64,000 nt of DNA from an uncultured Candidatus Babeliaceae bacterium. GTDB lineage: Bacteria; Babelota; Babeliae; Babelales; Babelaceae. The number at the start of each line of letters is the position of its first letter. The stretch's first letter is position 1. Position numbers and translations under genes: made by a program. Location: NCBI GenBank assembly GCA_963704655.1, contig OY969927.1, forward strand, positions 32,001 to 96,000, given 5' to 3'. Below are positions 19,429 to 58,127 of the stretch, in pieces. Under the pieces are notes generated by a model that did no database searches, was not told the DNA's origin, and worked only from the letters and a program-made list of their open reading frames with translations.

Positions 19429-19450
19429 AGATAGAGACCAGTACACGGCT

Positions 19451-19488
19451 GGCCTTCCATCTGTGGCTCCGAAAGGAGCGAAAGATGG
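19451..19488 (-). repeat. Family-B hairpin fused to tRNA-Ser CCA end
   Basis: tRNA sense CCATCT...AGATGG-AAGGCC. Confidence 0.8.
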
Positions 19489-19577
19489 AGGAGAGAGTGG
19501 GATTCGAACCCACGATCCCGATCACTCGGGATAACGGTTTTCAAGACCGCCGCTTTCGACCGCTCAGCCATCTCTCC
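19486..19577 (-). tRNA. tRNA-Ser(TGA)
   Basis: Cloverleaf, anticodon arm GCGGT-CT-TGA-AA-ACCGT, long variable arm, CCA. Confidence 0.97.
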
Positions 19578-19652
19578 GCTGGATCGTAAAGTATTATTCT
19601 ATTTTAAGGCTTTTGATATAAAAATCAATAGAATAATAAGCTATTTTTGCGC

Positions 19653-20051
19653 TTAAAGAACTTTATTGAGCTCGTGAATTGATTTGCCAAGCTGTTTATA
19701 GGCCAAAATTCCGGCAAATAGGGCAAATGTCCCTGCGATAATCTCGCGCCAGAAGACTCTAGGTACCTTGCTGAGCATTTGATTAACCGCCCAAAAGTGC
19801 TTTTCTGCAGGCGTCATGATAAATTCATACTCTAGGTTTTCTAATTCGAGCAAATAGTGTAAATACTCTTTTTTAAGTTCATAATAGCCATGGCCACAAT
19901 CGAGTAACGTTTCGCCGGCGCTATAGACTGCAACAGCAAGTAATGCTGAACCAATGGCGCCGTTTACTACCCCATTTTTTAGGTGATTATAAGAGACAGG
20001 GTGGGTATTTAAAGATACGCACGCTACAAGAGTTAAAACAATTTTTTTCAT
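19653..20051 (-). CDS. Secreted/membrane hypothetical protein
   Basis: MKK signal peptide, two hydrophobic segments; TAATG overlap with upstream gene. Confidence 0.75.
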   Translation of the reverse strand: MKKIVLTLVACVSLNTHPVSYNHLKNGVVNGAIGSALLAVAVYSAGETLLDCGHGYYELKKEYLHYLLELENLEYEFIMTPAEKHFWAVNQMLSKVPRVFWREIIAGTFALFAGILAYKQLGKSIHELNKVL

Positions 20052-20647
20052 TAATTTCGACCTCCTAATAAAGCTCGAATTTTAGGGTTTTGAGTTAGAT
20101 CTGAGGCTCTTCTGCCCCCGCCATCTCGAATTTCTGGGTCTATACCTGTTTCTAAAAGCAATTGTATAGTAATACGTGTTAGATTTTCATTTAGTGCTGC
20201 GGCATGAAGAAGGGTCCTGAGAGTTACTTGATTGCGAGCATTCTTAATAACGGCGTTAGGGAAATAGCTTATAAGTGCACGGGCTGGGGCGTCTTGAACT
20301 AAGTTGAAAAAATTTATAAGAAGATGCGCTGTTTCGTGAATATCTGTAAATCCTGAGTGTAAAATCAGTGCCTCTTCTAAGTTTATAGTGTCTATAGAAC
20401 CCGCAACATCACGATGAATTCCATTGGCTATATCAGCAGAAGTAAATCCAAATTGATAGTCCCAGGTTTGGGTAGGTTTTTCTAAGCCCCTTCTATAAGT
20501 GGGTTCAGAATTTGTGCCCTGAACAACAGTTAAATATTCTATAACTTTCACAAGACCTCTTGAGTGTTTAGAAATTGCATCTTCTGCAGCAGAAATTGAT
20601 AATGATATTAATGAAATTGTAAGACAAAGAAGATTTATTTTTTGCAT
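20051..20647 (-). CDS. Secreted ankyrin-repeat protein
   Basis: Signal peptide from MQKINLL; TLLHAAA...LLLETGIDPEIRDGGGRRASDL. Confidence 0.8.
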   Translation of the reverse strand: MQKINLLCLTISLISLSISAAEDAISKHSRGLVKVIEYLTVVQGTNSEPTYRRGLEKPTQTWDYQFGFTSADIANGIHRDVAGSIDTINLEEALILHSGFTDIHETAHLLINFFNLVQDAPARALISYFPNAVIKNARNQVTLRTLLHAAALNENLTRITIQLLLETGIDPEIRDGGGRRASDLTQNPKIRALLGGRN

Positions 20648-20757
20648 AAGCGATTCCTTAAAGATACTTAAAGAGCTTTTATAAGCCATTATAGAATAAT
20701 ATTTTTTGGTGAAATGATAAAGGAAGTTATAGAGAGATATCTTGTTAGGCTAAGAGA

Positions 20758-20810
20758 GGCCCGCCATCTGAAGTTTGCCGAGCGGGTACGCCCGGATAAA
20801 CGCAAGATGG
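20758..20810 (-). repeat. Family-B hairpin fused to tRNA-Arg CCA end
   Basis: tRNA sense CCATCT...AGATGG-CGGGCC. Confidence 0.8.
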
Positions 20811-20884
20811 TGCGCCCAGAAGGAGTCGAACCCTCAACCTTCAGATCCGTAGTCTGACGCTCTGTCCAATTGAGCTATGGGCGC
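20808..20884 (-). tRNA. tRNA-Arg(ACG)
   Basis: TCAGA-CT-ACG-GA-TCTGA, CCA end. Confidence 0.97.
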
Positions 20885-20950
20885 ATGATATTTAGAATAT
20901 ACATTTTATAAAAAATGTCTTTATTTTCAAAGTTATAAGCGAAATTTACT

Positions 20951-20991
20951 CCCTCGATACGTTCACTTACGTGAACACTCAGGGTGAGCGG
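20951..20991. repeat. Family-A repeat variant with expanded loop
   Basis: CCCTCGATAC-[GTTCAC..GTGAAC]-ACTCAGGGTGAGCGG. Confidence 0.7.
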
Positions 20992-21030
20992 GATGGACTG
21001 GCCGAGTCAGGCATCTCTTTCAGGAAGGAT

Positions 21031-21083
21031 GGCCTGCCATCTGAAGCTTGCCAAGCCAGTAGACGTGGATAAGCGAAAGATGG
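21031..21083 (-). repeat. Family-B hairpin fused to tRNA-Ser CCA end
   Basis: tRNA sense CCATCT...AGATGG-CAGGCC. Confidence 0.8.
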
Positions 21084-21171
21084 TGGAGAGAGAGGGATTC
21101 GAACCCTCGCGCCCCGTTACCGGAGCTCTTGCTTAGCAGGCAAGCGCTTTAGACCGCTCAGCCATCTCTCC
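21081..21171 (-). tRNA. tRNA-Ser(GCT)
   Basis: CTTGC-CT-GCT-AA-GCAAG, long variable arm, CCA. Confidence 0.97.
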
Positions 21172-21272
21172 TAACTGTATCAAAGATAATGAGTTATACT
21201 CATCATCGCAAAATAATTGTACAGTATTTTTTGGATTGAGTATATTCAAAAGCATAAAGATTTTAAGATTTT

Positions 21273-21575
21273 ATGCAAGTTGTTTTTATGTCAATTATTC
21301 TTGATATTAAGGTTATCCCACGCGCACGTAAGCAGTTATTGAAGGCCGATACTGTTTATGCTTTGCGTTGTTACGTGAATAGTCCTCCAGAAGACAATAA
21401 AGCAAATCAGGAGGTTATTGAGTGTCTTGCCAAGGCTCTTAAGGTCTCAAAAAGCTCGATAACTATTATAGCTGGCGCTACTGCGCGTATTAAGCGTGTT
21501 GCTATAGAAGGTTTTGATTCTAAAGAGGCTATCTATAAGAAATTGAATCTAGAGGTACAACATGCCCTATTTTAA
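21273..21575 (+). CDS. DUF167/YggU family protein
   Basis: KVIPRA, PPEDNKAN, AGATARIK motifs. Confidence 0.88.
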   Translation: MQVVFMSIILDIKVIPRARKQLLKADTVYALRCYVNSPPEDNKANQEVIECLAKALKVSKSSITIIAGATARIKRVAIEGFDSKEAIYKKLNLEVQHALF

Positions 21576-22755
21576 ATGGTTCGGGTATGATGCCCAGCAG
21601 AACCCGCATATGGGCAATATCGCCTGTGCACAGCACATTGATGTAGTTATGCTTCTGCAAGAGCGCGGTATCACAGCTATGCATGTGAGTGAGATTCGGT
21701 ATAGGCTTTTTAAGCCCTGTACCTTTTCTGAGCGCCAAGCTGTTCTACACGAATTGAGCCAATTGCTTGATGCCCAGGTGCGTCTTTCTCAGGCGCTGGA
21801 GATTATAAGTTCATTAGTAAAAAAAGAGTATATTCGACAGGTCCTGCTTGATTGCACACGTTCTGTTGATCAGGGAAAGTCATTTGCGGATGTTGCAGAG
21901 CGTTACCCAGAGATTTTTGATCCATTAACGATTTACGCGCTTAAAGCGGGGCATGATTCTGGGCTTTTGGCCAATGCATGTTCTGACCGTTCTAAGCAAC
22001 TAACGCAAATTGCTGAAATACGTGCAAAAATAACTGCTGTCATTGCTATGCCTTTAATAACCGCTATATTTTTTATAGGGATACTTATATTTTTAATGGC
22101 CGTAATTTTGCCGCAGTTTAAAAGAATATTTACGATGCTCAAAACAGCACTTCCTGCAAGTACTCAGTTTTTGTTCAAGCTTTCAGATGCTCTTACTTTT
22201 TCTACTATAGTAATTGCAGGGTCTTCTTTTTTTATGTGCACGCTCCTTTGTGTAGCTCTGGGTAAAACTAGAATTGGCAGAAAAATTTATGATAATTTTT
22301 TATTATATTTTCCTGGAGTAAGCTTCATTTATCAAGATTTCGCTCGTGCGCAGTGCCTGCAATCACTTGCTCTTTTGCTGCGGTCTGGCAGAACACTTGC
22401 TGATGCATTGGGGCATGTGGCAGAAAGTTTTAATAATAGTGTTGTTTGCGAGCAGCTGACGCATGTTCGCCAACAGGTGCAGACGGGTAAGCCCTTTACG
22501 CATGCTATACAGGCATGTCCGCTACTTGCTATTCCTGAAATTAAAAACTGTCTTGCCATTGCGCATGAAACAGCTGAGCTTGAGGTGATTTTGCAGCAGT
22601 TGAGTATTGTTTCACGTACTCGAGCTTTAAAAAAGCTTGATCGTTTAACGCTCTTAATTCAGCCCGCGTTACTTATACTTTTGGGTGCTGCTATTGGAGG
22701 TGTGCTTTTGGCGCTTTACTTACCATTGTTACAAATACCGCAGATGGTATCATAA
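21562..22755 (+). CDS. Type II secretion/type IV pilus platform protein (GspF/PilC family)
   Basis: Two T2SSF-like domains, three TM, C-terminal LIQP...ALYLP. Confidence 0.88.
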   Translation: MPYFKWFGYDAQQNPHMGNIACAQHIDVVMLLQERGITAMHVSEIRYRLFKPCTFSERQAVLHELSQLLDAQVRLSQALEIISSLVKKEYIRQVLLDCTRSVDQGKSFADVAERYPEIFDPLTIYALKAGHDSGLLANACSDRSKQLTQIAEIRAKITAVIAMPLITAIFFIGILIFLMAVILPQFKRIFTMLKTALPASTQFLFKLSDALTFSTIVIAGSSFFMCTLLCVALGKTRIGRKIYDNFLLYFPGVSFIYQDFARAQCLQSLALLLRSGRTLADALGHVAESFNNSVVCEQLTHVRQQVQTGKPFTHAIQACPLLAIPEIKNCLAIAHETAELEVILQQLSIVSRTRALKKLDRLTLLIQPALLILLGAAIGGVLLALYLPLLQIPQMVS

Positions 22756-22811
22756 AATACGAAAAAAAACTGTTCAAAATTATCGATTTTGGTATACTAT
22801 AAAGACATTTC

Positions 22812-22901
22812 TTAATAAGCCGGAGTGGCCCTTCGACTGGCGCTCAGGATGAACTTCACCACTTAAGGTGAAGAAAGTTTATATTAATAAGCCGGAGTGG
22901 C
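22812..22901 (+). repeat. 18-bp direct repeat TTAATAAGCCGGAGTGGC (22812-22829, 22884-22901) flanking a family-A repeat
   Basis: Direct repeat includes first 11 nt of tRNA-Leu; family-A copy at 22829-22854. Confidence 0.85.
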
Positions 22902-22976
22902 GAAATGGTAGACGCACGGGACTCAAAATCCCGCGGTGGCAACACTGTGTCGGTTCGAGTCCGACCTCCGGCACCA
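22891..22976 (+). tRNA. tRNA-Leu(CAA)
   Basis: CGGGA-CT-CAA-AA-TCCCG, variable arm, CCA. Confidence 0.97.
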
Positions 22977-23041
22977 TCCTGCGCTCCAGTGGCAAGCCCG
23001 CCATAGCCTTGGCGACGGCTGTGAGCTCCGGATGGCAGGCC
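22974..23041 (+). repeat. Family-B hairpin fused to tRNA-Leu CCA end, with nested GCCATAGCCTTGGCGACGGC
   Basis: CCATCC...GGATGG-CAGGCC. Confidence 0.8.
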
Positions 23042-23054
23042 AGTCTTTAATAAT

Positions 23055-25659: not shown

Positions 25660-25772
25660 TCCTATTTTATCTGCATTTAACGAAAAAAAACTATCGCTTA
25701 TTTTTATATGGAATATTTAAAAAATAAACGATAGTTTTCAATAAATGACAATCATCTTTAAAAGATTACAAG

Positions 25773-58017: not shown

Positions 58018-58020
58018 TTC

Positions 58021-58108
58021 CCGCTCACCCTGACACTTCGTCAAGCTCAGCGCTAAAGACAAGTTGCCTGCCCACCGAAGCTTTATGCGTAGGTCGGGTC
58101 GAAGGGTT
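58021..58108. repeat. Family-A repeat with nested A- and B-like elements in its loop
   Basis: CCGCTCACCCTGA-[insert]-GTCGAAGGGTT. Confidence 0.7.
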
Positions 58109-58127
58109 GGAGATATCAAAGATCTTC

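Follow-up and report, generated by a model that had tools for sequence, protein, structure and literature searches.

Hairpin modules behind four tRNA genes

The DNA analysed here (64 kb, referred to as the window) belongs to a 1.3-Mb genome of the Babeliales/Dependentiae kind and carries four intact tRNA genes with encoded CCA ends, each of which runs directly into a hairpin module (Table 1). On the tRNA strand the trailers read CCA-TCT..AGATGG-AAGGCC for Ser(TGA), CCA-TCT..AGATGG-CGGGCC for Arg(ACG), CCA-TCT..AGATGG-CAGGCC for Ser(GCT) and CCA-TCC..GGATGG-CAGGCC for Leu(CAA). The module uses the CCA of the tRNA as its start without disrupting the tRNA, and has the layout CCA, variable triplet (N3), T-W/G-C internal loop, variable inner stem-loop, T-W-C, N3 complement and TGG; after TGG comes a 3' box, C-NN(N)-GCC, usually with an additional A. 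With the final GCCA a new CCA arises, and further units are stacked onto it, as behind tRNA-Ser(GCT) and, elsewhere in the genome, in a similar tandem read behind tRNA-Ser(GGA). The Arg(ACG) module is without a new CCA because its box is followed by T. An eroded unit in inverted orientation is nested in the loop of the Leu(CAA) hairpin, and its reverse complement is ..ACA-GCC-GTC-GCC-AA-GGC-TAT-GGC-GGG-CTTGCCA.

The pattern RGATGGNNGGCC has four matches in the window (0.04 expected), all at these four trailers, and none of 100 shuffled windows had four matches. Folded as DNA, all four trailers hold the CCA within the outer 6-bp stem, with z-scores between -3.15 and -0.40. The stability of a single copy is unremarkable, and the real evidence for the stem is covariation (see below). 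Sequence, pattern count and folds agree with the sequence-only reading, according to which the encoded CCA opens a 6-bp stem and the trailers end in MRGGCC. Its observation that none of the four has a U-tail was confirmed by the sequence, with no U-run or T-run directly after the stem at any of them, and by a terminator scan, which gave four terminator-like sites against 3.7 expected and none of the CCA hairpins among them. We rejected intrinsic terminators as the identity of the modules since a G+C-rich stem with an immediate U-run is absent at all four. The scan also found one small hairpin just behind the Ser(TGA) module.

Table 1. tRNA genes, hairpin modules and related units located in the window
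Feature	Position	Strand	Basis	Remarks
tRNA-Ser(TGA), intact, CCA encoded	19486-19577	-	ARAGORN	
tRNA-Arg(ACG), intact, CCA encoded	20808-20884	-	ARAGORN	
tRNA-Ser(GCT), intact, CCA encoded	21081-21171	-	ARAGORN	
tRNA-Leu(CAA), intact, CCA encoded	22891-22976	+	ARAGORN	
Short hairpin module, Ser(TGA) trailer	19450-19488	-	DNA fold, -7.9 kcal/mol, z -3.15	CCA-TCT-TTC-GCTCC-TTTC-GGAGC-CAC-AGA-TGG, then AAGGCC-A; tRNA's CCA at 19486-19488; new CCA at module end
47-nt hairpin module and CGGGCC box, Arg(ACG) trailer	20758-20810	-	DNA fold, z -2.22	tRNA's CCA at 20808-20810
47-nt hairpin module and CAGGCC-A, Ser(GCT) trailer	21030-21083	-	Sequence and DNA fold, z -1.16	tRNA's CCA at 21081-21083; new CCA at 21032-21030
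Eroded second unit, starting at the new CCA of the Ser(GCT) module	20999-21032	-	Sequence reading	CCA followed by TCCTTCCTGAAAGAGATGCCTGACTCGGCCA
Hairpin module, Leu(CAA) trailer	22974-23042	+	Outer stem kept in DNA fold, z -0.40	Outer stem CCATCC/GGATGG, box CAGGCC-A; tRNA's CCA at 22974-22976
Eroded unit, inverted, nested in Leu(CAA) hairpin loop	22990-23023	-	Sequence reading against the tRNA-Ser(GCT) trailer of relative L014	
Copy away from any tRNA	34687-34740	-	Sequence	CCA-GCC-TTC-GCTTATCC..GGCAAGC-TAT-GGC-GGA-CAGGCCA

Copies and covariation across the genome

Copies were counted with a strict, non-circular test, in which the 3' box was located first and the triplets were compared only afterwards. 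The box is present at 23 of the 40 tRNA/tmRNA ends of this genome, and N3 is fully complementary at 17 of these and matches in two of three positions at five; pairing to the CCA accordingly extends genome-wide, to 17/40 ends on the strict test. Among 35,346 genomic CCA sites 29 pass, the 17 tRNA/tmRNA ends and 12 sites elsewhere. With a looser definition 24 of the 40 ends carry a hairpin and 16 do not. TCT is the dominant triplet (14 of 17 strict copies). Hairpin-bearing tRNA genes are co-oriented with replication in 17 of 24 cases versus 12 of 16 for the other tRNA genes, so the hairpins show no more strand bias with respect to replication than tRNA genes as such.

N3 is completely complementary at 17 of 23 boxes in this genome, at 11 of 18 in the loci of relatives and at 52 of 55 in nuclease loci (see below), and a new CCA follows the box in 14/17, 11/11 and 38/52 cases across the three data sets. 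Over these sets the covarying stem has 13 types of post-CCA triplet, and the compensatory change proposed from the sequence alone, CCATCT/AGATGG versus CCATCC/GGATGG, is borne out with both forms seen. Moreover, 14 distinct 47-nt copies have two Watson-Crick types at 10 of 16 stem pairs and only 6 unpaired cells out of 224. Where the outer stem is mismatched, the opposed bases are T.T or T.C and not G.U.

Two elements away from tRNAs had been reported in the window as related to the trailers. The first (34687-34740) is a real copy, which opens ..GATCCA-GCC, has an eroded 3' arm and sits between two direct copies of a sequence of approximately 60 nt. The other (58020-58110) turned out to be a composite of another repeat family, in which a degenerate copy is held.

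Relatives at the same tRNAs

In genomes of the same genus the orthologous Ser(GCT)/Arg(ACG)/Ser(TGA) cluster carries modules of the TCT, GCC, TAC or GTC type, or nothing, and in several members of the family these tRNAs abut. The hairpins thus appear not to be inherited with the tRNA. Among 27 informative relatives, nine have both hairpin and nuclease, two the hairpin only, five the nuclease only and 11 neither (Fisher p 0.018, which is overstated given that the relatives are kin); this table is based on one to five tRNAs per genome and on the strict box, which misses variants. Even within a genus the presence of the nuclease is patchy, and there are pseudogenised copies with internal stops. 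For this genome, comparison with the same-genus genome G003 gave no truly empty site with alignable flanks, because the intergenic flanks are too diverged.

These data bear on whether the hairpins are RNA signals kept by the host in the tRNA precursor, setting the direction or timing of 3' cutting, protecting the CCA or stopping transcription. The copies lie directly after the mature 3' end, hence they are transcribed with the tRNA, their stems covary, and eight T in a row come after the tmRNA copy. A precedent is the terminator hairpin just after the CCA of Escherichia coli proline tRNAs, which RNase E removes (PMC5291269). Both are stem-loops right after the CCA that must be cut off, but the proline-tRNA trailers are intrinsic terminators with a U-run and leave the CCA unpaired, while the hairpins here have the CCA inside the stem, are mostly without a U-run and form a nuclease-tied repeat family. 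Since in relatives these three tRNAs have modules with other triplets or none at all, the hairpins are probably not a conserved tRNA processing signal. Triplet types vary at the same tRNA within one genus, some copies lie away from tRNAs, and 16 of the 40 ends in this genome do without; the outer-stem mismatches are not of the G.U kind, there is neither a U-run behind the four stems nor a match to an Rfam family, and a nuclease link across phyla (see below) would be left unaccounted for. We consider an RNA signal of this kind quite improbable. The proposal in the sequence-only reading that the trailers are a processing signal masking the CCA is likewise not supported as the reason for their existence, considering the 11 relatives with neither hairpin nor nuclease, and such masking may be a side effect. 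With copies lying in transcribed trailers an effect at the RNA level is possible.

A GIY-YIG nuclease cassette behind tRNA and tmRNA genes

In other genomes a nuclease cassette has this same hairpin as its leader. The full cassette carries a gene for an 80-residue GIY-YIG nuclease (PF01541 over residues 1-72, 65.8 bits); no other domain scored above cut-off in this protein except an overlapping T5orf172 match, and NCBIfam has no family for it. Among solved structures it is closest to UPF0213 BH0048 (E 2.6e-9) and to the catalytic domain of SLX1. The catalytic residues are kept, with Y5, Y17, R27, H31, N32 and E63 invariant in 17 nuclease sequences, and Dependentiae and Alphaproteobacteria nucleases are 60-80% identical.

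Loci with homologues of this nuclease have a same-strand tRNA or tmRNA end at most 400 nt upstream in 65 of 80 cases, distributed over many phyla and representing at least 22 tRNA species plus the tmRNA; by our own arithmetic, chance adjacency of tRNA and nuclease would be approximately 0.6%. The CCA-paired arm is present in 58 of these 65 loci, and seven of the other 15 have an upstream CCA hairpin, some of them after tRNA- or tmRNA-like 3' ends. In this genome there are two full nuclease genes, 175 nt behind tRNA-Arg(CCT) and 55 nt behind tRNA-Glu, each preceded by a CCA hairpin; these cassettes are of the GGC and GTC type, and the TCT type has no nuclease-linked copy. It had been suggested to look for nuclease genes next to the trailers: none lies within the window, and it is the full cassettes elsewhere in the genome that carry one. 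As read in this genome's cassettes and, in full, in one Bradyrhizobium cassette, hairpins lie upstream of the nuclease gene only and the cassette ends approximately 12 nt past the stop codon. No homologue was detected on 72,556 plasmids or 50,697 phages (E <= 1e-10), and therefore no vehicle is known that would carry it from one phylum to another.

Such trailers could also be attachment sites left behind at these tRNA genes by integrase-driven islands or prophages, and some copies do have partial duplicates of tRNA or tmRNA ends nearby, namely a duplicate of the tmRNA 3' end in the genome and an 18-nt duplicate of the tRNA-Leu(CAA) 5' end in the window. However, no integrase or transposase domain is found in the eight largest of 13 ORFs at 17.6-25.0 kb of the window (four have ordinary domains and four no domain at all), the trailers share no tRNA sequence beyond CCA, and the 3' segments of the four tRNAs are not repeated in the stretch read. 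The same architecture recurs behind the many tRNA species and phyla listed above, unlike island-specific att sites, and we regard this origin as very remote.

Turnover of cassettes at one site

At one Bradyrhizobium tRNA-Ala(GGC) site there are a full CGC-type cassette and full GCC-type cassettes with a variant nuclease, as well as a deletion inside the gene, a remnant of the leader and solo hairpins, one of which corresponds to the first 24 bases of hairpin 1 in the full cassette. Solo hairpins, deletion remnants and full cassettes accordingly share one site in one genus. Spacers were read at 8 sites (of 30 loci) and all 8 have at least a remnant.

The nuclease and its hairpins might also be a domesticated host system, for example with the hairpins as marks at tRNA genes through which a single-strand nuclease controls incoming or recombining DNA, or which keep integrating elements from using tRNA ends. 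Common integration sites are found at tRNA 3' ends, the nuclease is strongly conserved with its catalytic residues intact, and it is missing from the plasmid and phage records searched. In Neisseria, SsnA and its NTS hairpins modulate transformation, and domestication is discussed (PMC11893778). The patchy presence within a genus, the pseudogenised copies, the decay of cassettes to remnants at one site and the eroded, stacked and nested units in the window speak against such a role, and look like the turnover of dispensable DNA. We judge domestication to be unlikely.

Discussion

We suggest that the four trailers are gene-less first hairpins of a nuclease cassette located at tRNA and tmRNA ends, which is found in many bacterial phyla and is likely to be selfish DNA that maintains itself and spreads as such, with a predicted recognition of hairpins in single-stranded DNA. 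The nuclease is predicted to recognise the hairpin in this form, and the TGG:CCA pairing likely marks the fit of the module to its target. Solo hairpins such as these four may be left after loss of the nuclease part, or a nuclease from another locus may help to copy them. Joining DNA is beyond a GIY-YIG nuclease on its own, and we can only infer how the module moves. More tentatively, and with a good deal of doubt, we propose a transposase-less selfish family that is spread across phyla and docks at the CCA of tRNAs and tmRNAs: the target would be read in single-stranded DNA through TGG:CCA, the 80-residue GIY-YIG nuclease would serve the family, the tRNA would stay intact and a new CCA would allow stacking. 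The mini-element aimed at tRNA 3' ends that was suggested by the sequence-only reading is supported by the patchiness in relatives, the replacement of types at the same tRNA, the role as leader of a nuclease cassette, and the regeneration of CCA with tandem stacking.

If this is correct, a tiny nuclease-borne element uses CCA, the most conserved three bases in biology, as its landing pad and has been overlooked in the trailers of tRNAs from Dependentiae to rhizobia, and this would represent a new mode of site-specific insertion or mobility without transposase or integrase. It would also extend the Ssn nucleases to a clade with a natural, defined target beside the hairpin, which would be useful for tools that cut single-stranded DNA, and explain G+C-rich "structured trailers" in the annotation of tRNA genes of A+T-rich genomes. 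A question raised is how tRNAs with their CCA locked in a stem are matured.

We could not find any description of the module, and it is apparently undescribed. With Rfam, the window gave only rRNA and tRNA matches at gathering scores, and eight cassette loci only tRNA, tmRNA and sub-threshold plastid models on the tRNAs (E <= 0.1). Likewise, the module matches no REP family and has no blastn similarity to E. coli genomes. The published SRM pattern has four matches in the genome (1-6 in five shuffles) and none at tRNA trailers.

The closest published system is Ssn/NTS, comprising single-strand-specific GIY-YIG nucleases with NTS/SRM hairpin repeats (Chenal et al. 2025, PMC11893778), which in Neisseria is proposed to control incoming or recombining DNA. 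Both systems have a tiny single-domain GIY-YIG protein, oriented hairpin repeats beside the gene and many gene-less copies; the key residues Y6, Y17 and E64 of the 94-aa SsnA (PMC11893778) have their counterparts in Y5, Y17 and E63, and both are widely but patchily distributed, the Ssn authors noting an IS-like look of theirs. Here, in contrast, the consensus of the hairpins is another one, their first bases are the CCA of a tRNA or tmRNA gene, and they lie upstream only in the loci read, whereas those of Ssn flank the gene on both sides. The main text of PMC11893778 does not use the words tRNA, tmRNA or CCA; its supplement scores Bradyrhizobium genomes with a cd10448 homologue, the gene not being specified, and its Discussion mentions REP/BIME with RAYT as well as IS200/IS605.

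Like our module, REP/BIME-RAYT (Y1/HUH) and IS200/IS605 involve short hairpins that act in single-stranded DNA, have many copies without a gene for each nuclease gene, and insert beside a short fixed target that is not disrupted. In IS200/IS605 the foot of the hairpin base-pairs with the target and so reads it, and the TGG:CCA pairing is reminiscent of this. The linked enzyme differs, however, in being a GIY-YIG nuclease, and such nucleases form no covalent intermediate with DNA; the Y1 transposase PF01797 has no match in this single-contig, 96%-complete genome, with a control search positive in 6 of 14 known genomes. REPs are dispersed between genes in hundreds, compared to 29 strict copies here that are mostly (17) at tRNA ends.

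Homing endonucleases of the Seg type cut double-stranded DNA and combine their catalytic domain with a DNA-binding part, whereas the protein described here is a bare 80-aa catalytic domain without a DNA-binding extension, is accompanied by a conserved hairpin leader and is encoded on the chromosomes of many phyla; phage records gave no match to it. The likeness is to phage T4 SegB, a free-standing GIY-YIG homing endonuclease whose gene lies in a tRNA gene cluster (PMC2330249): in both cases a GIY-YIG gene sits among tRNA genes and favours the inheritance of its own neighbourhood.

Hairpins at four tRNA ends in the window

Four of the seven tRNA genes that ARAGORN predicts in the window have trailers which, on the tRNA strand, start CCA-TCT or CCA-TCC and carry AGATGG or GGATGG some 26-56 bases further on, followed by AAGGCC, CGGGCC or CAGGCC. 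The 64 kb contain four occurrences of the pattern RGATGGNNGGCC, all at these trailers, against 0.04 expected. Folding as single-stranded DNA places the CCA within an outer 6-bp stem in 4/4 trailers, in agreement with the sequence-only reading, which had claimed a stem starting from the encoded CCA; the AGATGG and GGATGG variants that it described were both recovered. It had also noted the lack of a U-tail, and indeed none of the four stems is directly followed by a run of T. In Escherichia coli, RNase E is described as freeing terminator-bearing proline tRNAs (PMC5291269). The fold z-scores are modest (-3.15, -2.22, -1.16 and -0.40), and thermodynamic stability was rejected as evidence, with two of the four hairpins folding no better than many shuffles; the case therefore rests on recurrence and covariation. 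Contigs from four metagenome runs cover mainly the tRNAs, and no joint removing a hairpin was seen in them.

Features at the four tRNA ends, in window coordinates
Feature	Position	Strand	Basis
tRNA-Ser(TGA)	19486-19577	-	ARAGORN, CCA encoded
tRNA-Arg(ACG)	20808-20884	-	ARAGORN, CCA encoded
Eroded second unit, stacked behind the Ser(GCT) module	20999-21032	-	own reading of sequence
tRNA-Ser(GCT)	21081-21171	-	ARAGORN, CCA encoded
tRNA-Leu(CAA)	22891-22976	+	ARAGORN, CCA encoded
Eroded inverted unit in the loop of the Leu(CAA) hairpin	22990-23023	inverted	own reading of sequence

Genome-wide recurrence and anatomy

The genome holding the window is a single contig of 1,298,077 bp (38% G+C), the closest named relatives of its proteins belong to Candidatus Babeliales, Dependentiae and TM6, and its 39 tRNA genes and tmRNA gene all encode the CCA. 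To avoid circularity, the box TGGC-N2-3-GCC was located first, 12-110 nt downstream of each CCA, and only then were the three bases following the CCA (N3) compared with the three preceding TGG, for which full complementarity has a chance of 1 in 64 per box. The pairing proposed from the four trailers holds up genome-wide: among the 40 tRNA and tmRNA ends, 23 have a box, with N3 fully complementary in 17 and at two of three positions in five, while the 35,346 CCA sites on both strands give 409 boxes and 29 fully complementary triplets, 17 of them at these same ends. A slightly looser box finds a hairpin at 24 of the 40 ends; the strict box loses Ser(TGA), because its box reads AAGGCC, and Leu(CAA), because a nested unit gives an earlier box. 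Replication-strand bias of the hairpins is absent beyond that of the tRNA genes.

The commonest form of this module is 47 nt long, CCA-N3-T(T/G/A)C-inner stem-loop-inner stem-T(T/A)C-N3'-TGG, and is followed by C-NN(N)-GCC, usually then A; short forms (Ser(TGA), Phe and tmRNA) have GCTCC-TTTC-GGAGC in place of the long inner stem. For covariation we compared 14 distinct 47-nt copies: 11 come from tRNA ends of this genome and three from relatives. Two Watson-Crick types occur at 10 of the 16 consensus pairs, only 6 of 224 cells are non-Watson-Crick, and the three CCA:TGG pairs are invariant; the CCA belongs to a stem that covaries. The target is the base after the CCA, the tRNA is left intact, and the module usually makes a new CCA through the A after the box (14/17, 11/11 and 38/52 copies in three data sets), on which additional units follow behind Tyr, Ser(GCT) and Ser(GGA). 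Target fitting by guide pairing is a property of IS200/IS605 elements and, by analogy, the TGG:CCA pairing may reflect the same kind of fitting.

Several further copies deserve mention. The trailer of tRNA-Leu(CAG), TCCTATTTTATCTGCATTTAACG (window 25660-25685), resembles the 5' half of the TCC-type hairpin that follows tRNA-Leu(GAG), eroded towards A+T, and those of Leu(TAG) and Asp elsewhere begin like broken hairpin copies. A non-tRNA copy (window 34687-34740) lies between two direct copies of about 60 bases (34612-34676 and 34741-34800) that contain ..GGGAGTTTTTGCGGCGAGTGCA(C/T)TATTTATG... The tmRNA gene has a short hairpin and then a run of eight T, and about 170 nt downstream (contig positions 971266-971330, minus strand) there is a second copy of the last ~28 tmRNA bases with its own 47-nt-type hairpin. 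Finally, the Gln-tRNA hairpin and its downstream flank are repeated in inverted orientation 4.2 kb apart (contig positions 435737-435767 and 439944-439974), so the bracketed segment could invert.

Patchiness among relatives

Trailers in the Ser(GCT)/Arg(ACG)/Ser(TGA) cluster were compared with those of 30 relatives. Same-genus genomes differ: all three tRNAs carry GTC-type hairpins in one, GCC and TAC types occur in another and TCT and GCC types in a further one, and a fourth lacks the hairpin on two of the tRNAs and has an A+T-rich remnant on the remaining one. Several genomes from the family and order have these tRNAs only 6-20 bases apart. In alignments with one same-genus relative (G003) a gap takes the place of the hairpin in the Arg(ACG) and Ser(TGA) trailers, with A+T-rich flanks too diverged to fix the borders. 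Judging from these trailers, the hairpin is not a conserved feature of the three tRNAs. Hairpin types are mostly shared within a genome and tend to differ from one genome to the next, which fits spread or homogenisation inside genomes and not vertical inheritance.

A linked minimal GIY-YIG nuclease

Neighbouring nuclease genes had been suggested as a check. The window holds no match to PF01541; two of the ten matches in the whole genome are full genes of 80 and 83 residues, one beginning 175 nt past tRNA-Arg(CCT) and the other 55 nt past tRNA-Glu, in both cases after a CCA hairpin. A third match is a fragment, and the others include a 55-residue fragment and UvrC. The nucleases are of the GGC and GTC type; the TCT-type solo hairpins (copies without a gene) of this genome may be served by them or may be fossils.

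Close homologues of the 80-residue protein number 280, with identities of up to 60-80% in Dependentiae and Alphaproteobacteria, and six residues (Y5, Y17, R27, H31, N32 and E63) do not vary across 17 sequences. NCBIfam gave no family for it, its cluster members bear generic names only, and no homologues were detected on plasmids or phages at E <= 1e-10. Scanning one genome per species gave at least 569 homologues, of which the best 80 loci were kept; these come from Babeliales, Bradyrhizobium, Rhizobium and other Alphaproteobacteria, Bdellovibrio-like bacteria, Verrucomicrobiota, Acidobacteria, Bacteroidetes, Ignavibacteria, Patescibacteria and others. Of these 80, 65 have a tRNA or tmRNA on the same strand whose end lies at most 400 nt upstream, at least 22 tRNA species and tmRNA being represented, and 58 of the 65 have a CCA-paired arm; with the stricter box test N3 is fully complementary in 52/55, representing nine triplet types. 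Among the 15 loci without a detected tRNA, a CCA hairpin is present upstream in seven, some after tRNA- or tmRNA-like 3' ends, and was not found in eight, four of which have less than 500 nt of upstream sequence. The hairpin is linked to a conserved minimal GIY-YIG nuclease.

Sixteen of 31 genomes, including the one holding the window, have the nuclease (at least 100 bits, no stops). Among 27 informative genomes, hairpin and nuclease were both found in nine and neither in 11, with a hairpin only in two and a nuclease only in five (odds ratio 9.9, Fisher p 0.018; the genomes are kin and so not independent, each contributes few tRNAs, and variants escape the strict box).

Upstream of tRNA-Arg(CCT) and its cassette, i.e. 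hairpin leader plus nuclease gene (contig positions 229290-231170, partly in locus L001), there are three units ending ..CCCGATAG(A/G)(G/T)(T/A)GCACCA and then a CCA hairpin; behind two of the units lie small ORFs whose starts resemble signal peptides. The arrangement has the look of a pseudo-target array, or of cassettes stacked beside the tRNA.

Cassette turnover and leader structure

A search of 41 Bradyrhizobium-group genomes provided 30 loci at tRNA-Ala(GGC), and the spacer (from the CCA to the conserved end of the next gene) was read in eight. Full cassettes account for four of these, one of CGC type and three of GCC type with a divergent nuclease. The others hold a cassette with an internal gene deletion, a remnant of the leader (64 nt) and two solo hairpins, one ACC-type of 49 nt and one CGC-type of 32 nt; in the latter, the first 24 bases equal hairpin 1 of the full cassette. 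Cassettes thus turn over and decay: losing the remainder of a cassette can leave a solo hairpin like those in the window, and the mixture of types indicates that different lineages replace one another at one site. At this site L144, L147 and L135 combine the divergent nuclease (MKYVYILESLDSEHFYVG..) with GCC-type hairpins, and other genomes combine an MWYVYIIRS.. nuclease with CGC-type hairpins, a hint that triplet type and nuclease lineage may go together.

Aligned leaders (n=55, each 200 nt or less) have the order hairpin 1, distal segment GCGAA-N3'-TG and second hairpin, G(T/C)CCGGCGTAGCCC..GGGCGAAGACGG(A/G)C. The distal segment is the inverse of the module start, CA-N3-TTCGC, which therefore has two possible partners. 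Among the leaders listed, this segment changes with N3 for GCT, GCC, TTC, GTC, GAC, GGC, TGC and most CGC types, and a few of the CGC leaders listed do not fit. By our own reading the second hairpin is similar to hairpin 1 taken from the opposite strand, a layout that fits DNA better than RNA.

Relation to known systems

Rfam, consulted as a possible refutation, has no family matching either the trailers or the leaders of the cassettes. A supposed resemblance between the inner stem and E. coli REP was dismissed, as blastn of the 53-nt module gave no match in 5,426 E. coli genomes. The genome has no Y1 transposase gene. Around the four tRNAs lie 13 ORFs, and the eight largest contain no integrase or transposase domain (DUF167, T2SS F, spermidine synthase and hydrolase domains; no Pfam match in four).

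The nearest published system, as presented in the main text of Chenal et al. (PMC11893778), is that of the single-strand GIY-YIG nucleases (Ssn) with their hairpin repeats (NTS/SRM). That main text contains no occurrence of tRNA, tmRNA or CCA, and the supplement files that were searched list genomes, not genes. The published SRM pattern occurs at four places in our genome, as in shuffles, none of them at a trailer. SsnA is reported there to cut single-stranded DNA only, a few bases upstream of its hairpin, and by analogy the CCA hairpin may act in single-stranded DNA and be bound or cut by its nuclease. We see the finding as belonging to an established theme, small GIY-YIG nucleases paired with their hairpins, the CCA-docked form of which is apparently undescribed; in the full-text literature, subscription-only papers being outside its scope, no description of such a hairpin or its nuclease cassette was found.

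Three near-identical hairpins (TGTCATCCCGGACTCGATCCGGGATC..) that fit the SRM pattern (contig positions 358035, minus; 423939, plus; 959079, minus) look like true NTS-type repeats, and neither a tRNA nor a PF01541-matching GIY-YIG gene is near them.

A second repeat family and other observations

Five other GIY-YIG proteins (~70-117 residues, one truncated) are flanked by a different repeat, CTCATCCTGAGC..GTCGAAGGG. This hairpin family and its variants occur in the window (20949-20998, 22830-22855 and 58020-58110), near contig positions 375531, 474580, 482659, 488366 and 767552, and inserted inside the CCA hairpins of His, Pro, Asn and Met. Together with the larger GIY-YIG genes it would be a separate nuclease-repeat pair. 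At window 22812-22901 the 18 bases TTAATAAGCCGGAGTGGC (seven upstream and the first 11 of tRNA-Leu(CAA)) are present twice and bracket a 54-base insert holding a second-family copy (..CCTTCGACTGGCGCTCAGGATGAAC..). This has the look of an insertion into the 5' portion of the tRNA gene, with a replacement copy either brought along or left behind. Moreover, two 5S rRNA genes follow the single rRNA operon (window 45288-45402, 71.6 bits; 46138-46252, 68.5 bits).
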